Shown here piece after piece: positions 11,143 through 63,847 of a stretch of DNA of 64,000 bases (positions within the stretch are counted from its first letter, which is position 1; the number at the start of each line of letters is the position of its first letter). The stretch lies in contig DAOVCJ010000001.1 of the NCBI GenBank assembly GCA_030670085.1, positions 11,977 to 75,976 of the forward strand, given 5' to 3'. This stretch comes from Candidatus Aenigmatarchaeota archaeon (GTDB taxonomy: Archaea; Aenigmatarchaeota; Aenigmatarchaeia; QMZP01). The notes under the pieces were generated by a model. The model searched no databases, was not told the origin of the DNA, and saw only the letters and a list, made by a program, of their open reading frames with translations. The position numbers and the translations under genes were made by a program.

Positions 11143-11257
11143 GGGCCCGTAGCTCAATGGATAGAGCGATGGTCTTCTATTCAAAATAGAAGATTCGAGG
11201 CATTTGCCTATGAGAGAAGAAAGCCATAGGTTGGGGGTTCGAGTCCCCTCGGGCCCG
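11143..11257 (+). tRNA. tRNA-Arg(UCU) with a 42-nt intron at canonical position 37/38
   Basis: Cloverleaf read by eye. Acceptor GGGCCCG/CGGGCCC. D-arm GCTC-AATGGATA-GAGC. Anticodon stem ATGGT/GCCAT. Loop CU-UCU-A, then an insertion at 11180-11221. T-arm GGGGG-TTCGAGT-CCCCT. Discriminator G. No CCA is encoded. Confidence 0.85.
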
Positions 11258-13595: not shown

Positions 13596-14180
13596 TCAGT
13601 ATTCCTCGCATTTAATCTGGTAAAAGCTTCTAGGATGACTGCAGGAAGGGCATTCTTCTGGCGGCTCTTTTCCAAAATGGACATATCCACATTCCATGCA
13701 GACCCACCATACCTCTTTTTCCTTTTTGAAAACAGTTCCTGCCTCCACTTCCTCCAGGAGTTTCTGGTATCTTTCTTCGTGATGCTTTTCTGCTATAGCA
13801 ATCGCTTTTAACCTCTTTGCAATTTCAGGAAACCCCTCTTTCTCTGCAACGTCAGCAAACTCAGGATACATTTTTGTATGTTCATAATTTTCCCCTGCAA
13901 TCGCTACCTTCAGATTTCCTGCAGTATCACTGAGAATTGTTGGGGCTGCTGCTTCAACTATTATTTCATCCAAGCTTTCTTTACTTTTTTCTTTCAGTTG
14001 ACTGATTAGCCTGAAAAGCCATTTTGCATGTTCCTTCTCGTTCTCTGCTGTGATTAGGAAAATTTCTGCAATCTGTTCAAATCCCTCTTTTTTCGCAACC
14101 TTTGCATAGAAAGTGTAGCGGTTTCTTGCCTGGCTTTCGCCAATAAACGCCTTTGTCAGATTTTCGATTGTCTTTTCCAT
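13596..14180 (-). CDS. rbr: Rubrerythrin
   Basis: The N-terminal ferritin-like diiron domain contains ExxH pairs (ENEKEHA, AEKHHEE). The C-terminal rubredoxin-like motif is CMECGYV...CPSCSHP. The ATG at 14180 is preferred over the GTG at 14189 because GGTGAGGGG lies just upstream. Confidence 0.9.
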
Positions 14181-14233
14181 TCCCCTCACCTTGTTTCTTT
14201 TTGATAGATTCTGCTTTTTATTATTTAGTTAAA

Positions 14234-14254
14234 AAATATAACACTGTTATATTT
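14234..14254. promoter_or_regulatory. Palindromic operator candidate AAATATAAC-ACT-GTTATATTT overlapping the rubrerythrin TATA region
   Basis: It is a perfect 9-3-9 inverted repeat. A 19-nt core (AAATATAACACTGTTATAT) recurs identically at 63775-63793, upstream of the DUF1858-ferredoxin operon. Confidence 0.6.
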
Positions 14255-14330
14255 ATAAGCGTTTTGTTCGAAACATGTTCTTTGCCTTATACCAACATGA
14301 TTATTCTTATGTTACCACTGATATTCCTTG

Positions 14331-14340
14331 CGCTTATAAG
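14331..14340 (+). promoter_or_regulatory. BRE/TATA candidate for the metE operon
   Basis: CGCTTATAAG lies about 35 nt upstream of ATG 14372. The same 9-mer CGCTTATAA occurs on the opposite strand at 14253-14261, serving the divergent rubrerythrin gene. Confidence 0.35.
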
Positions 14341-14371: not shown

Positions 14372-15355
14372 ATGAGATCAACTGTTGTGGGACCCTATCC
14401 AAGGGTTGGTTCTGAATACGGTAAGGGGTTAAGGAAAGAGCTGAACAGGTTTTACAAAGGGGAAGGAGACGAAGGTTTGATAAGACAGCTCAGAGAGAAT
14501 TTAACAAGGGAAGTTGTTCAGGAGATGACATCTGTTGGCATAGATCTCCCCAACTATGGACTGATAGACATTCATGATGAATTGACCTGGCCCCTAGAAA
14601 GCGTGGAAGGGGTTGATTTCGGTGGAATGAAAAAAACATTCCATACAAACATCCACTACAGGGAAGCCGTAGTGAATGGATTGATTGAAAGAACAAAAAG
14701 AATTGTCAGCCCCCTGTATGATGTGGCAGTGGGAGAATACACCAACACCAAGATAGAAATCCCAGGACCATACACAATGGCAAAACACTCTGTTCTAGGT
14801 GATGGAGCTCCGTATAAAAACATAGCAGAGCTTGCGATGGCTTACGCAACCTTGTTAAAAGAGGAGCTTTTGGATTTGAAAGATGTTCCCATGGTTCAGT
14901 TCAATGAACCCTCCATTATTGCACACGGTAAAGATCACAGTGACATAGGGATAGTTCCGGAACTGTATCAGGAGATGCTTCACGGTGTTGAGATACCGAC
15001 GGCTGTCTGGACGTTCTATGGTATTTACGTGCCCAATTCACTGAAGGTTGTTTTTTCTCTTCCGGTGGATCTTGTCGGCCTTGATTTCGTTTGGGATCCT
15101 AACGTAGCTGACTTACTTCAGGTTTTGTCACACGATAAGGGAATAGGTATTGGGATTATTGATTCAGGCGACAGAGGTTACATCGGCCTAGAAAACAAGG
15201 ACGATACTATCAGAAAACTTAACAAGCTTAAAGAACGGGTGAATTTTGATAAATCCTACATATCAAACAACGCCACCCTGGAGCATCTTCCAAGGGATGT
15301 TGCCAGACAAAAGGTGGCCCTGATAGGAGAAATAACAAGAGAGGTGAATGAATGA
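14372..15355 (+). CDS. Cobalamin-independent methionine synthase, N-terminal-domain-like protein (non-catalytic half)
   Basis: MRSTVVGPYPRVG... has MetE/UROD-like TIM-barrel blocks but lacks the HxC and PDCG zinc ligands. The track start at 14153 runs through the promoter, so ATG 14372 was chosen. Confidence 0.65.
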   Translation: MRSTVVGPYPRVGSEYGKGLRKELNRFYKGEGDEGLIRQLRENLTREVVQEMTSVGIDLPNYGLIDIHDELTWPLESVEGVDFGGMKKTFHTNIHYREAVVNGLIERTKRIVSPLYDVAVGEYTNTKIEIPGPYTMAKHSVLGDGAPYKNIAELAMAYATLLKEELLDLKDVPMVQFNEPSIIAHGKDHSDIGIVPELYQEMLHGVEIPTAVWTFYGIYVPNSLKVVFSLPVDLVGLDFVWDPNVADLLQVLSHDKGIGIGIIDSGDRGYIGLENKDDTIRKLNKLKERVNFDKSYISNNATLEHLPRDVARQKVALIGEITREVNE

Positions 15356-16335
15356 AGTTACCGCTGCTGTCCACTACTGGGGTAGGATCCTTCCCAAAAC
15401 CAGACTATGTCAAGGGGGCTAAAGGATATCTGGATGATGACAGTAAAGTGGCAACAGAGGAGTTTATCAGACGTCAGGAAGAGATAGGAATTGACATACT
15501 TGTAGACGGTGAACTGTACAGGGGAGACATGGCAACGGATTATGCCCGTGCACTGGGGCTCCCCTTATCTGACTGGACGAGATCCTATGACAACAGGTTC
15601 TGGAAGAGGGGTATAGTGGACGCGCCACTTGAAAGGAAAGAGCCTATACAGTTAGAACAGTTCAAGTATGCGCAGGGCCTGACAGATAAACCTGTAAAAG
15701 GCATGCTTACTGGTCCTACCACCCTTTCCAACTGGAACTATGACAAACACTATGGAGACAGGGAAAAACTGATTCTCGCATGGGCTGACATAGTGAATAA
15801 GGAGGCACTGGATCTTGAAGAAGCCGGCGCACGATTCATTCAGATAGATGAACCAGCTATTGCAGAAAGGCATTGGGAAGGCGAGCTTTTCAGAATGGGT
15901 CTTGATAAGGCAAGAGAAGGAGTTAATACATACATCATAACCCATATCTGCTACAGCGAGTTTCCTATGGTTTACTCCCGCCTAAGGGACCTGCCTGTTA
16001 ATCAGGTGGATATAGAGCTATCCAATGAACTCGATCTGGGACTGAAATCACGCCTGCTGGGTATGGTTAAAGAGGATCCCATTTCAAATTACATGGATGT
16101 TGCTGCTGGTGTTATTGATGTCAGGCCTGGCATACCTGTGGAGGATGTGGATACTGTTGTTAAGAGGATATATACAGCGTTGGAGGTTCTTGCTCCTAAA
16201 GATGAAATGTTACAACGGATATGGATAAAACCCGACTGTGGTTTCAGAACAACCAAGGACCCTGACATGGCATATAAAAAGATGGAAGTAATGGTAGATG
16301 CAGTCAGAAAGGTCAGGACAGAGTTGGGTGTGTAA
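15352..16335 (+). CDS. metE: Cobalamin-independent methionine synthase, catalytic domain
   Basis: Contains GVGSFPKP, IQIDEPA, the HICYSEF His-x-Cys zinc ligands, and PDCGF. The ATGA overlap with the upstream gene suggests translational coupling. Confidence 0.8.
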   Translation: MKLPLLSTTGVGSFPKPDYVKGAKGYLDDDSKVATEEFIRRQEEIGIDILVDGELYRGDMATDYARALGLPLSDWTRSYDNRFWKRGIVDAPLERKEPIQLEQFKYAQGLTDKPVKGMLTGPTTLSNWNYDKHYGDREKLILAWADIVNKEALDLEEAGARFIQIDEPAIAERHWEGELFRMGLDKAREGVNTYIITHICYSEFPMVYSRLRDLPVNQVDIELSNELDLGLKSRLLGMVKEDPISNYMDVAAGVIDVRPGIPVEDVDTVVKRIYTALEVLAPKDEMLQRIWIKPDCGFRTTKDPDMAYKKMEVMVDAVRKVRTELGV

Positions 16336-61302: not shown

Positions 61303-61710
61303 TCACCTCTTTTTATTTTTCCTGTAATCTTCTATGCTGTTTCTTAAAGCATCTACTGCCAGCACACTGCAGTGATATTTTATTGGGGGAAGCCCGTCAA
61401 GTTTTTTGACGATCTGATCTTTTGTAATACTCAATGCGTATTTTATTGTTTTACCCTTAACCATCTCTGTTAATATCGAAGATGAGCTCACAGCAGCCAC
61501 GCAACCGAACGTTTCAACCTTTATATCTTTTATAATCTCTTCTTTTTGTTTATTCTTCCCTACCCTTATGTAAAGCCACATCACATCCCCGCAGATAGGA
61601 TTTCCAATCTTTCCGACTCCGTCCGGGTTTTTCATCCCACCCATGTTCTTGGGATGCTGGAACAGCTCCATGACCTTCTTTGAGTACATACTCTCACTCT
61701 CTTTCACCAC
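61303..61710 (-). CDS. iscU: Fe-S cluster scaffold IscU/NifU N-terminal-type
   Basis: GNPICGDVM...FGCVAAVSSS...KYHCSVLAVDAL contains the three ligand cysteines. Confidence 0.85.
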   Translation of the reverse strand: MVKESESMYSKKVMELFQHPKNMGGMKNPDGVGKIGNPICGDVMWLYIRVGKNKQKEEIIKDIKVETFGCVAAVSSSSILTEMVKGKTIKYALSITKDQIVKKLDGLPPIKYHCSVLAVDALRNSIEDYRKNKKR

Positions 61711-62864
61711 TTACCTTTGAACGGACTTATCTCTCTCAGCTCACTCACAACCTCGGGCACGTTTTTCAGGACATAATCTATATCCTTTTCCTTCGTATAC
61801 CTTCCCATGGTTATTCTTAGTGAACCATGCGCTTGTTTAGGACTCAACCCTATTGATATTAGGACATGGGAGGCCTTGAGGTCCTTGGACGAGCATGCAG
61901 AACCTGTAGACGCTTCTATACCCACAATGTCCAGTTTCAGGATTAAGGCTTCACCCTCTATGAAATCGAACCTGAAGTTTGTGTTTCCTGGGAGTCTCTT
62001 TTCCGGATGCCCGTTAATGTAGGAATTTGGTACCTTCAAAAGACCCTTTACGAGCTTGTTTCTCATCCTGCTGAGCCTCTTTGCCTCTTTTGTCATCCCC
62101 TTGTTTGCAATTTCACAAGCCTTTGCAAACCCCACGATTCCCGCAACATTCTCTGTTCCTGATCTCCTTCCGGACTCGTGTCCACCACCATGCAGAAGAG
62201 GCTCTATCTTGACACCCGTTCTCACGTAGAGCAACCCTACCCCCTTCGGTCCATATATTTTATGGGAGCTTGCTGAGAGCATGTCTATCTTCATTTTTTT
62301 AACATCTATTGGAATCTTGCAAAAACTCTGAACAGCATCTGTGTGGAAGTATATGTCTTTCTCCCTGCAGATTTTTCCAACCTCTTCGATGGGTTCTAGG
62401 GTTCCGATTTCGTTGTTGGCATGCATTACTGAAACGAGGATGGTTTCCTTTTTTATGGATTTCTTAAGCTGTTCTAGGTCAATAATCCCATATTTGTCAA
62501 CATCCAGATATGTTATTTGGAATCCCTGCTTCTCCAAGAACTCGCACGTCTCCATGACTGCCTTGTGCTCAATCTTGCTGGTTATTATGTGGTTCCCCTT
62601 TTTCTTGTTTGCCATGGCAACACCGACCAGGGCTAGATTATCAGACTCTGTTCCGCCTGAGGTAAAAACAATCTCCTCTGGTTCAGAATTTATAATCTTT
62701 GCAATCCTTTTTCTGGAATTCTCCATTGCCAGTCTTGCCTGTTGCCCCATGCTGTAGAGTGAGGAAGCGTTGCCAAAATCCTCACTGAAATAGGGCTTCA
62801 TCGCTTTCAACACCCTGGGATCGACAGGGGTAGTTGCCGCATAATCAAGATATATCTTTCTCAT
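61704..62864 (-). CDS. iscS: Cysteine desulfurase (IscS/NifS class)
   Basis: Contains IYLDYAATTP, SSHKIYGPKG (PLP Lys) and ASTGSACSS (catalytic Cys). The start was moved to MRKIY (62864), directly after the stop of the upstream regulator gene. Confidence 0.9.
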   Translation of the reverse strand: MRKIYLDYAATTPVDPRVLKAMKPYFSEDFGNASSLYSMGQQARLAMENSRKRIAKIINSEPEEIVFTSGGTESDNLALVGVAMANKKKGNHIITSKIEHKAVMETCEFLEKQGFQITYLDVDKYGIIDLEQLKKSIKKETILVSVMHANNEIGTLEPIEEVGKICREKDIYFHTDAVQSFCKIPIDVKKMKIDMLSASSHKIYGPKGVGLLYVRTGVKIEPLLHGGGHESGRRSGTENVAGIVGFAKACEIANKGMTKEAKRLSRMRNKLVKGLLKVPNSYINGHPEKRLPGNTNFRFDFIEGEALILKLDIVGIEASTGSACSSKDLKASHVLISIGLSPKQAHGSLRITMGRYTKEKDIDYVLKNVPEVVSELREISPFKGKW

Positions 62865-62865
62865 T

Positions 62866-63231
62866 TCATCTACCTCGTTCAAAACACACCTCACAACCTT
62901 TGGGAACCTTCCCATACATTCTATGGATTTTGCACAGAGTTCTATCTTTTCTGCATATTTTACAGATTCTCTGCATTTCAACTATCATATTCCTCCCCTT
63001 TATCACTTTCTCAACAGATTTCTCAATTTCTTTTTTTGTGTTTTTTGGAAACCTTACGTTTTTTGCCCTCTTGGAGCTTATGTACTGGGAGACTGCAGCT
63101 TCTGTTATACCCATTTTCTTTGATATTTCCCTTTGCCTTATCCCATTCTTAACCATTACTCTTGTAAACTCCCTCCTTATTGCCGGGAGCAGGTACCATA
63201 CCTCTATCTCCTGGGGCATTCTGAGTTTCAT
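62866..63231 (-). CDS. HTH transcriptional regulator with a Cys-rich C-terminal module
   Basis: The helix-turn-helix is IRQREISKKMGITEAAVSQYIS. The C-terminus CKIC...C..H...CEVC provides 5 Cys plus His. It is the first gene upstream of iscS-iscU. Confidence 0.6.
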   Translation of the reverse strand: MKLRMPQEIEVWYLLPAIRREFTRVMVKNGIRQREISKKMGITEAAVSQYISSKRAKNVRFPKNTKKEIEKSVEKVIKGRNMIVEMQRICKICRKDRTLCKIHRMYGKVPKGCEVCFERGR

Positions 63232-63234
63232 AAA

Positions 63235-63248
63235 TTAACGATTGTTAA
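63235..63248. promoter_or_regulatory. Inverted repeat TTAAC-GATT-GTTAA between the TATA box and the start of the HTH regulator gene
   Basis: This is a perfect 5-4-5 palindrome lying 4 nt upstream of ATG 63231. On the minus strand the TATA box CTTTATATAT sits just upstream (63253-63262). Its half-sites (TAAC/GTTA) resemble those of the 14234/63775 operator. Confidence 0.35.
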
Positions 63249-63290
63249 AATAATATATAAAGTTATCGATGAAAAACCAAGAACAGGGTT

Positions 63291-63494
63291 TTATTTTGGT
63301 TTTACCAGTTTTATTGCAGATACCGAACAGTTCTCTACACAGGCCATGCACTCAATACAATCCTCTGGCTTTGCGACATCTGATTTTCCATCCTTAAGCT
63401 CAAAAACGTTCTGCGGACAGACAGAAACACATGCCCCACATCCTATGCATTTTTTCTTATCAACCACCGGAATCTTATGGTCTATCTTTGCCAT
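63291..63494 (-). CDS. 2x[4Fe-4S] ferredoxin
   Basis: Carries CIGCGACVSVCP and CIECMACVENC. Confidence 0.85.
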   Translation of the reverse strand: MAKIDHKIPVVDKKKCIGCGACVSVCPQNVFELKDGKSDVAKPEDCIECMACVENCSVSAIKLVKPK

Positions 63495-63506: not shown

Positions 63507-63746
63507 TTATTTTTTGCTTTCCTCCTTTATATTTTTGACAACCCCATTCATCTCCTTGAGCATTGATTCTATGTCCTTATCTGACATTCCATGAGCCTTT
63601 GCTCCCTGCTCCAGTGTTTCCCATGCAGCAATATGGCAGCCAACACAGTGCAGGCCACGCTTAAGCATTACCTCTACAGTCTCAGGATACTCCTTTATAA
63701 TCTCTCCTAGTGTCATACCCCTTGTTATCTTTTCTTTCTTTCTCAT
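63507..63746 (-). CDS. DUF1858 (hybrid-cluster-protein-associated redox disulfide) domain protein
   Basis: ITRGMTLGEIIKEYPETVEVMLKRGLHCVGCHIAAWETLEQGAKAHG carries CxxC. The start was chosen at MRKKEK (63746), where a GGGGTGA SD lies 6 nt upstream. Confidence 0.6.
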   Translation of the reverse strand: MRKKEKITRGMTLGEIIKEYPETVEVMLKRGLHCVGCHIAAWETLEQGAKAHGMSDKDIESMLKEMNGVVKNIKEESKK

Positions 63747-63774
63747 GAACTCACCCCAATCAAAACATTTCTTT

Positions 63775-63795
63775 AAATATAACACTGTTATATAT
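63775..63795. promoter_or_regulatory. Second copy of the palindromic operator (AAATATAAC-ACT-GTTATATAT) at the DUF1858-ferredoxin promoter
   Basis: A 19-nt core is identical to 14234-14252. It directly abuts a TATA-like TTTATATAT on the minus strand, about 30 nt upstream of ATG 63746. Confidence 0.6.
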
Positions 63796-63847
63796 AAATA
63801 TTTAATACCACCCGACTTTGTCCAATCCATCAAAGTCAGGAGACGGG

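Follow-up and report, generated by a model that had tools for sequence, protein, structure and literature searches.

The DNA analysed here, a window of 64,000 nt with a GC content of ~43%, carries two copies of a palindrome, which we call motif A, one at the promoter of a rubrerythrin gene and the other at the promoter of a gene cluster that leads from a DUF1858 protein and a ferredoxin into the iron-sulfur assembly genes iscS and iscU. Comparative analysis indicates that motif A is most likely a repressor operator serving a regulon of iron-sulfur, sulfur and oxidative-stress genes. With a probability of roughly 0.6, we take it to be bound by a dimeric, cysteine-rich helix-turn-helix (HTH) regulator of the XRE type that belongs to a group defined in this analysis as subfamily A and is paralogous to the HTH protein that the window encodes at 62866-63231; the regulator is predicted to lie outside the window, and we infer that a subfamily A gene is present elsewhere in this genome. 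The operator reading is supported by the retention of motif A at orthologous promoters, by its position on the TATA boxes of iron-sulfur, sulfur and redox genes elsewhere, and by its presence at the starts of subfamily A genes. A preliminary description of the window had proposed a repressor operator that defines a small redox or peroxide regulon; comparative evidence upholds the operator and the regulon, whereas the latter appears not to be devoted to peroxide alone and to be centred instead on iron-sulfur cluster and sulfur metabolism together with oxidative defence. The two sites, their promoters and the genes downstream of them are arranged as follows.

14234-14254, no strand: predicted motif A operator, copy 1, AAATATAAC-ACT-GTTATATTT, a perfect 21-bp palindrome with ATAAC half-sites and a 3-nt spacer
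14251-14261, minus strand: putative TFB-recognition element (BRE) and TATA box of the rubrerythrin promoter, CGCTTATAAAT, read from sequence, overlapping the operator arm by 4 nt
13596-14182, minus strand: rubrerythrin gene, predicted target (Pfam Rubrerythrin, 1.3e-38, and RUBY_RBDX; NCBIfam RuberyRbr, 3e-76)
63775-63795, no strand: predicted motif A operator, copy 2, with the core ATATAACACTGTTATAT at 63777-63793
63791-63806, minus strand: putative TATA region of the DUF1858 promoter, TTAAATATTTATATAT, likewise read from sequence, overlapping the operator arm
63507-63747, minus strand: DUF1858 protein (hybrid-cluster-protein-associated redox disulfide domain), the first gene after copy 2 (Pfam DUF1858, 2e-17; TIGR03980, 1e-22)
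63291-63494, minus strand: 2x[4Fe-4S] ferredoxin (Pfam Fer4 families)
61704-62864, minus strand: cysteine desulfurase IscS (Pfam Aminotran_5, 8.5e-94)
61303-61689, minus strand: scaffold protein IscU (Pfam NifU_N, 3e-41), 128 aa by the gene call on L001, an identical contig from a public sequencing run that reaches ~8 kb past the right end of the window

Copy 1 is a perfect 9-3-9 palindrome whose arms are exact reverse complements, as had been described, and its 19-mer AAATATAACACTGTTATAT occurs at 14234-14252 and again, letter for letter, 49.5 kb away at 63775-63793. Chance would supply 0.03 such matches, and none of 100 dinucleotide-preserving shuffles equalled the observed count. With up to three mismatches allowed the 19-mer still matches just these two places in the 64-kb window, in keeping with the earlier remark that no other intergenic copy was seen, and the relaxed core ATATAAC-N3-GTTATAT gave no further convincing copy in the window. 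Both copies match the motif A consensus, TATAAC-AnT-GTTATA, exactly, with A at position -5 and a 3-nt spacer. They also hold the same register relative to the TATA box, on the minus strand, so that the equal placement noticed previously is correct; each adjoins or overlaps, on its transcribed side, the TATA-like box that precedes a gene, and the junctions run CGCTTATAA into ATATAAC and TATTTAT into ATATAAC.

Read along the minus strand, the rubrerythrin site is CGCTTATAA followed directly by ATATAACAGTGTTATAT, and the fuller promoter consists of AAAACGCTTATAA, ATATAACAGTGTTATAT and TTTTTAAC in succession. Copy 1 is thus fused to the 3' end of the BRE/TATA-like element and lies ~54 nt upstream of the rubrerythrin ATG (14182), which is preceded by the ribosome-binding sequence GGTGAGGGG. 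It is located between rubrerythrin (minus strand) and a split metE (plus strand, ATG at 14372), and the 9-mer CGCTTATAA that these divergent promoters were said to share is indeed present once on each strand (14253-14261 and 14331-14339). At the DUF1858 promoter the sequence runs AAATATTTAT, ATATAACAGTGTTATAT and TTAAAG in succession, and copy 2 sits 30 nt upstream of the DUF1858 ATG (63747) in the spacer between nrdG and the DUF1858 gene, the TATA region lying ~50 nt past the nrdG stop codon (just beyond ~63800) and nrdR-nrdD-nrdG being immediately upstream, as read on L001. After copy 2 the minus strand encodes DUF1858, ferredoxin, a 121-aa HTH protein (cysteine-rich at its C-terminus), IscS and IscU; the genes of what had been termed a DUF1858-ferredoxin operon are therefore confirmed, with the refinement that the unit continues into the HTH regulator gene, iscS and iscU. 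The window comes from a DPANN archaeon; the labels on homologues are Woesearchaeota, Nanoarchaeota or Aenigmatarchaeota, and a rubrerythrin with 99% identity carries the label Candidatus Aenigmarchaeota.

Conservation can be followed at locus L289, which encodes an HTH protein 70% identical to that of the window within the same gene order from nrdD to gdh. Its nrdG-DUF1858 spacer reads TTTTTATATTC, ATAACAGCGTTAT and ATTAAAG in succession, containing an ATAAC-type palindrome with three spacer nucleotides (N3), and its ferredoxin-HTH spacer reads CTTTAAATAATATA, TTAACAATTGTTAA and TTTATG, containing a TTAAC-type site with four (N4; motif B, below). Compared with the window, the palindrome block of the first spacer is 16/17 identical within surroundings that are ~50% identical. 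Since both the window and L289 keep the two operator types, each at its own promoter, this pattern fits two regulators and not a single sloppy one. The rubrerythrin palindrome is also retained exactly at L151-153 (rubrerythrin 94% identical, different downstream genes), beside a TATA box that has changed from CTTATAAAT to CTTTTAAAT, although so close a relative provides weak evidence.

The link to a regulator family is made at locus L229, where the palindrome overlaps the ATG of a 123-aa protein beginning MKPYCEVAVQNLLP that is 27% identical to the window HTH. Subfamily A comprises the relatives of this protein (P0241-P0262), which have the N-terminus MKPYCE, invariant residues C5, C93, C96, C106 and C122, and a near-invariant C119. 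Pfam returned only weak HTH_3, HTH_26 and similar matches for subfamily A and for the window HTH. The two subfamilies, A and B (the family of the window HTH), are homologous over their full length with an hhalign probability of 99.8% and with the pattern C-x2-C...C-x2-H...C-x2-C in register. Motif A lies between the TATA box and the ATG in all seven distinct subfamily A genes examined and overlaps the ATG in six of them, and no N4-spaced site was found at these seven loci. The sites upstream of the subfamily A genes are as follows.

L229, L278, L279/280 and L286: ATATAACA(C/G)TGTTAT-ATG
L287/288: TTATAACACTGTTAT-ATG
L281-284: ATATAACAGTGTTATA-ATG
L285: TTATAACTCTGTTATAT, ~35 nt upstream of the subfamily A ATG

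A palindrome at or just upstream of the start codon, as in these genes, is what an autoregulated repressor usually shows. The seven presumed autoregulatory sites, like the one in L289, were retrieved by protein homology and not by the motif, and they are therefore unbiased examples of it. Subfamily A genes repeatedly occur near a gene for a TrmB-family regulator and the ribosomal S12/S7 cluster (L278, L279, L281-L284), and a ThiI/THUMP gene is also nearby in L278 and L279; such a neighbourhood could serve as a guide to the gene in further genomes.

The HTH protein of the window had been offered as a candidate binder of the palindrome, and on this point our analysis reaches a different view. 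The features concerned are these.

62866-63231, minus strand: subfamily B regulator, an XRE-type HTH with a C-terminal Cys/His domain (weak Pfam HTH_3)
63235-63248, no strand: predicted motif B operator, TTAAC-AATC-GTTAA, with TTAAC half-sites and a 4-nt spacer
63253-63262, minus strand: putative TATA box of the internal HTH-gene promoter, CTTTATATAT, ~26 nt upstream of the ATG

We detected 886 homologues of this protein, each of ~120 aa, in which an N-terminal PQE-E motif and C100, C113 and C116 are invariant and H103 is near-invariant. Among the matches listed, 80 subfamily B loci come from species-representative genomes (best identity to the window HTH 56%), and in these the gene is nearly always either followed directly by iscS-iscU or separated by ~3 kb from a SufS/SufU-like pair downstream of it. 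In almost every locus examined, TTAAC-nATn-GTTAA follows a TATA box just upstream of the HTH gene. The window's own copy, TTAACAATCGTTAA, is preceded by CTTTATATAT and ends three bases short of the ATG at 63231; a TATA box ~26 nt from that ATG implies a leaderless transcript, the same TATA/ATG arrangement recurs in most of 78 homologous loci, and the placement of motif B is, on positional grounds, what one would expect of a leaderless gene under autoregulation. Across the 1.09 Mb that the HTH loci cover, TAAC-N4-GTTA occurs 74 times, compared with 8-16 times for spacers of 0-3 and 5-8 nt. In 50 of the 78 loci an exact motif B stands no more than 150 bp ahead of the HTH gene, the same count for spacers of 2, 3, 5 and 6 nt being 0, 2, 3 and 0 loci. 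The family-wide operator, TTAAC-N4-GTTAA, which is present at 63235-63248, thus differs from the reported palindrome, with its ATAAC half-sites and 3-nt spacer, and the 62866-63231 protein is probably a binder of motif B and not of motif A.

The two motifs are discrete classes, separated by the base at half-site position -5 and by spacers of 3 and 4 nt. At position -5, A is found in 59/60 motif A arms and T in 100/102 motif B arms, and at position -6, T is found in 57/60 motif A arms and almost never in motif B arms. What they have in common is a TAAC/GTTA core, around which the arms of motif A stand one bp closer together and carry A in place of T before TAAC. The AlphaFold (AF2) model of the window HTH is confident, with six helices and a pLDDT of 86, and a fold search of the PDB with this model gave no significant match (best E 0.7, with only the XRE/C-protein core aligning), the weak best matches being C.Esp1396I, Cop and DdrO. 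A sequence search of the PDB with the window HTH gave only generic HTH matches and NCBIfam gave nothing useful for it. An exhaustive profile search for the wider regulator family found 2002 representatives at E <= 1e-3, 944 at <= 1e-10 and 34 at <= 1e-30, and many of these wider-family members begin MKPxCE.

Further examples of motif A were sought in a metagenome collection with the 18-nt pattern AAATATAACANTGTTATAT, which gave at least 120 loci; this length was chosen because a 16-nt core had proved unspecific in a scan of viral contigs, with 62 matches that were mostly phage or bacterial operators. Among the matches listed, contigs of 30-56% GC with archaeal-type promoters carry the palindrome fused to the TATA box (TTATAAATATAAC, TTTAAATATATAAC), and a fusion of TTATAAAT to ATAAC is seen at iscS, copA, ferritin-like and other promoters. 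Again among those listed, the motif lies on the TATA box of iscS-iscU in L205, L215, L235 and L270, and the gene order in L215 and L235 is nrdR-nrdD-nrdG-DUF1858-ferredoxin, then motif A, then iscS-iscU, without an HTH gene. L269 has three motif A sites, with a SufS-like gene divergent from cysteine synthase, and elsewhere the motif adjoins genes for a SufC-like ABC ATPase (L253), a rubredoxin-like rubrerythrin domain and a rubrerythrin fragment (L161, L188), an EncFtn/rubrerythrin-like protein (L234), glutaredoxin (L217), rhodanese (L183), radical-SAM proteins (L166, L182), ThiI (L229) and a CopA-type heavy-metal P-type ATPase (L262, identified from sequence alone).

Several other arrangements were seen in these scans. 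In metagenome Ga0209541, archaeal-looking contigs of 53-56% GC contain two or three copies of TATAACAnTGTTATATTTT within 90-250 bp, and the repetition of an AT-rich 19-mer in such GC-rich DNA suggests a larger regulon in that lineage.

L159, 471-662; L172, 3563-3709; L182, 894-995: copies of TATAACAnTGTTATATTTT upstream of scpB, a gene for an AsnC/Lrp-type regulator and an intein-containing radical-SAM gene

Motif A also stands beside orc1/cdc6 genes (L219 at 1651, L220 at 1100, L222 at 8260), where TTCCATTGGAG follows directly; this could be an origin-recognition-box-like element and could point to a link with a replication origin. Phage-like contigs (L096, L113, L114, L138, L142) carry tandem arrays of two or three ATAACAnTGTTAT palindromes of the kind typical of Cro/CI-type operator clusters. 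In gut contigs (L158, L173, L199, L204, L208, L228, L237 and ~45 others) the 15-mer TATAACAnTGTTATA usually occurs twice, overlapping or in tandem, just ahead of a TetR-family gene, and some neighbours of these genes encode ABC exporters. In L048 (9037-9908), a metagenome-assembled genome of an Aenigmatarchaeota member, a perfect motif A lies 130 bp upstream of a subfamily B gene; it has the CTTATAAAT fusion seen at the rubrerythrin promoter (a 25-nt match with one mismatch) and is flanked by an antitoxin-PIN pair (RHH-type, read from sequence) and by the subfamily B gene, downstream of which are SufB/D-like open reading frames (also read from sequence), a SufS-like gene and a SufU-like gene.

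The most serious competitor to a subfamily A regulator, which we nevertheless regard as unlikely, is that the window's own HTH protein (62866-63231) accepts both 3- and 4-nt spacers and alone controls rubrerythrin, the DUF1858-ferredoxin genes, its own gene and iscSU. The TAAC core is common to both half-sites and the recognition helices are similar (TEAAVSQY and SQAAISQY), DPANN genomes hold few regulators and no subfamily A gene was seen in the window, and the promoters of three subfamily B genes (L010, L048, L065) have N3-spaced sites of their own, to which L048 adds the perfect motif A mentioned above. Those N3 sites, however, retain TTAAC and not ATAAC half-sites, and N3 spacing is at background level in the 1.09 Mb around 80 subfamily B genes, with 9 sites against 74 for N4. 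The single-regulator explanation also has to account for the two operator types that the window and L289 each keep at separate promoters, and for the motif A at iscSU in L215 and L235, which has no adjoining subfamily B gene.

Less probable again is that the palindrome is the operator of an unrelated regulator, Fur/PerR-, TrmB- or Lrp-like, with the subfamily A genes as its targets and not as self-regulators. Such a possibility is raised by the 15-mer serving as a TetR-family operator in gut bacteria, by the tandem arrays in phage contigs and by the TrmB-family gene that L278, L279 and L281-284 have near their subfamily A gene. Against it, six of the seven subfamily A genes show the classic autoregulatory layout in which the site overlaps the ATG of a leaderless gene, motif B has an equal layout at the subfamily B paralogues, related half-sites parallel related recognition helices, and the motif does not fit the consensus of SurR (GTT-N3-AAC), PerR/Fur (7-1-7) or NrdR. 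We set the SurR operator aside since the palindrome reads AAC-N3-GTT, and the PerR/Fur box since the arms are ATATAAC around a 3-nt spacer and not of the 7-1-7 TTATAAT-N-ATTATAA type, no Fur-family gene having been sought outside the window. The NrdR box, a 16-bp palindrome (acaCwAtATaTwGtgt) that precedes nrd genes, was likewise rejected; an NrdR-box-like ACACAATATATTGTGG is present as a separate element upstream of nrdR (L001 4985-5010, ~3.4 kb past the right end of the window), with a second, weaker palindrome of this kind, CTGCATATTGTAG, ~30 nt before it, and the nrdR-nrdD-nrdG cluster of this DPANN archaeon is bacterial-style. It is very improbable that the element is not a protein operator at all and represents a palindromic double TATA, a hairpin or terminator at the RNA level, or a repeat that arose by chance in an AT-rich spacer. 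The arms ATATAA and TTATAT are themselves TATA-like, a T6 run follows the rubrerythrin palindrome on the sense strand and copy 2 comes just after nrdG, but the non-TATA core AAC-AnT-GTT is conserved even in contigs of 53-56% GC, and the low chance expectation and the retention of the site at orthologous positions do not suggest coincidence. A hairpin or terminator was rejected because the folds, at -4.3 to -5.4 kcal/mol (z -1.1 to -1.6), are no better than those of shuffled sequence, hairpins of -4.3 and -4.4 kcal/mol (z -1.6 and -1.1) being among them, and an Rfam scan of the window found no match at the palindrome, its sole match being a tRNA at 11143-11257.

A number of observations weigh against our preferred reading, that of an operator for a subfamily A regulator, and need to be considered with it. 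No subfamily A gene was found by tblastn in the 64-kb window or in the ~8 kb beyond its end (L001), and neither a word-based protein search nor look-ups of encoding contigs and cluster members recovered one from the samples that hold the source genome. The TTAAC-type sites with a 3-nt spacer at the three subfamily B promoters mean that spacing is not absolute, so that cross-binding by the window HTH is possible, and the perfect motif A ahead of the subfamily B gene in L048 may reflect control of B by A. Motif A is missing from more distant promoters, namely the rubrerythrin promoters of L154-157 (rubrerythrin 80-81% identical) and the DUF1858 promoters of L009, L010, L014, L019 and L074. The search that gave the metagenome sites used the motif itself as its query, and the functional enrichment among them is descriptive and without statistics; moreover, about half of the listed metagenome matches are human-gut bacterial contigs with the same 15-mer TATAACAnTGTTATA upstream of a TetR-family gene, and the 15-mer is therefore not unique to this archaeal system. 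With regard to the missing sites, rubrerythrin is a poor tracer of motif A, being so conserved and so frequently passed from one lineage to another, and L086 has an N4 site ahead of its DUF1858 gene in place of motif A, from which it appears that target genes can switch between the two regulators.

If subfamily A does act at these sites, repression would be the most economical reading, since the palindrome covers the 3' end of the TATA box or the start site. At the target promoters the ATATAAC arm would be fused to or overlap the 3' part of the TATA box, and a bound dimer would block binding of the TATA-binding protein (TBP) and transcription factor B (TFB) or the entry of RNA polymerase. Characterised archaeal repressors act in this way, by interfering with TBP/TFB binding or polymerase recruitment. 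The dimer would in this manner repress both rubrerythrin and the transcript that runs from DUF1858 and ferredoxin into HTH-iscS-iscU. At the regulator genes the palindrome would lie between the TATA box and the leaderless start codon and so cover the predicted start site. The subfamily B protein would autoregulate the internal promoter through TTAAC-N4-GTTAA, giving the iron-sulfur assembly operon two inputs, motif A ahead of the DUF1858 and ferredoxin genes and motif B ahead of HTH-iscSU. As for the signal, the target set includes cysteine desulfurase and scaffold, Suf-like components, cysteine synthase, sulfurtransferases, iron-sulfur enzymes, rubrerythrin/ferritin-like proteins and glutaredoxin. 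The conserved Cys/His set suggests either an iron-sulfur cluster or a redox switch of the thiol/metal type, by analogy with IscR, SufR and SurR. The Cys/His set may carry an iron-sulfur cluster or a redox-sensitive metal site and, as in IscR and SufR, loss of the cluster under oxidative stress or high cluster demand may free the DNA; the 3 Cys + 1 His of subfamily B would fit a cluster or a structural zinc site equally well. More tentatively, and as something we consider possible rather than probable, two paralogous Cys/His-rich XRE-type regulators with the operator grammars ATAAC-N3-GTTAT and TTAAC-N4-GTTAA may form an iron-sulfur-sensing circuit by which DPANN and other archaea control oxidative defence and the minimal IscS-IscU (and Suf-like) machinery, a counterpart of IscR/SufR on a different fold in which 3 Cys + 1 His (B) or 6 Cys (A) would hold the cluster and A would act above B.

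The nearest known systems include IscR, a [2Fe-2S] regulator of the Rrf2 family with operators at the bacterial iscRSUA promoter. As there, the subfamily B gene lies directly upstream of iscS-iscU with a palindrome at its own promoter and predicted autoregulation, the predicted regulon joins iron-sulfur cluster assembly with oxidative-stress genes, and the cluster ligands of IscR are 3 Cys + 1 His, a composition equal to that of subfamily B (C100, H103, C113, C116). The differences are that IscR is an Rrf2 winged helix, whereas here the domain is an XRE-type HTH_3, the motifs are different, the promoters are archaeal and use TBP/TFB, and there are two paralogues with two operator types for which cluster binding is a prediction only. 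Pfam found no Rrf2 domain in the window HTH or in subfamily A, and there was no sequence or fold match in the PDB to Rrf2 proteins. SufR, the [4Fe-4S] repressor of sufBCDS in cyanobacteria and actinobacteria, is similarly cysteine-rich, encoded beside an iron-sulfur assembly operon and autoregulated via palindromes, and many subfamily B loci are ~3 kb upstream of a SufS/SufU-like pair, with the SufB/D-like open reading frames between them in L048; SufR nevertheless belongs to another DNA-binding domain family and to a bacterial system, and no sequence similarity between it and subfamily B was detected.

Among archaeal regulators, SurR of Thermococcales, MsvR of methanogens and RosR/OxsR of haloarchaea act as repressors or activators of oxidative-stress genes from sites that overlap the TATA box or the point where transcription starts. 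MsvR controls a rubrerythrin-containing operon, and SurR uses a cysteine thiol switch. OxsR uses such a switch as well (PMC9426492). These proteins differ from the present family in being ArsR-type, V4R-containing and TrmB-type winged helix regulators, none of them known to be linked to iscSU, and the SurR motif GTT-N3-AAC is the inverse arrangement of the AAC-N3-GTT of motif A. The Cro/CI/C-protein XRE repressors share the HTH_3-type core and palindromic operators of 15-19 bp, including the phage arrays of ATAACAnTGTTAT-like palindromes, but they are without the conserved C-terminal Cys/His helical domain and have no known tie to iron-sulfur genes, and the structural matches to them were non-significant. 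The gut-bacterial TetR operators have the identical 15-mer, often in tandem and immediately ahead of the TetR gene (52 of the flanking proteins fall in one cluster); they differ in having bacterial sigma-70 promoters, an unrelated protein family and ABC-exporter neighbours, and the identity looks like convergence on a good HTH-dimer site and not homology.

A palindromic repressor site on an archaeal promoter is a familiar device, while the regulator family is uncharacterised and is here tied to iron-sulfur homeostasis in DPANN archaea. Most of these archaea have not been cultured, and their tiny genomes encode very few regulators, which means that their regulons must be read from sequence. The full-text literature, with subscription-only papers outside its coverage, yielded nothing on this family, the motif or a dedicated archaeal IscS-IscU regulator, and nothing relevant was found in the literature on COG2522, DPANN regulators, archaeal iron-sulfur regulators or MIS/SMS regulators. 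A 2026 review of the field names only bacterial cluster-sensing regulators (PMC13066941). The pairing of a regulator family with its operator offers a concrete, testable proposal that ties rubrerythrin-type oxygen defence to sulfur-transfer enzymes and the minimal IscS-IscU system. It also presents a natural experiment in which paralogous HTH dimers have diverged by one half-site base and one bp of spacing, and with proteins of ~120 residues and operators of 15-21 bp the biochemical tests are straightforward.

Elsewhere in the window, the cobalamin-independent methionine synthase gene that is divergent from rubrerythrin, with its own CGCTTATAA element, is split into two adjoining, overlapping genes that together span 14372-16335 on the plus strand.

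14372-15355, plus strand: Meth_synt_1-like half of the split metE
15352-16335, plus strand: Meth_synt_2 half of the split metE

The tRNA matched by Rfam lies on the plus strand; the match spans 115 nt where the model has 71 positions, which suggests an archaeal tRNA with an intron.

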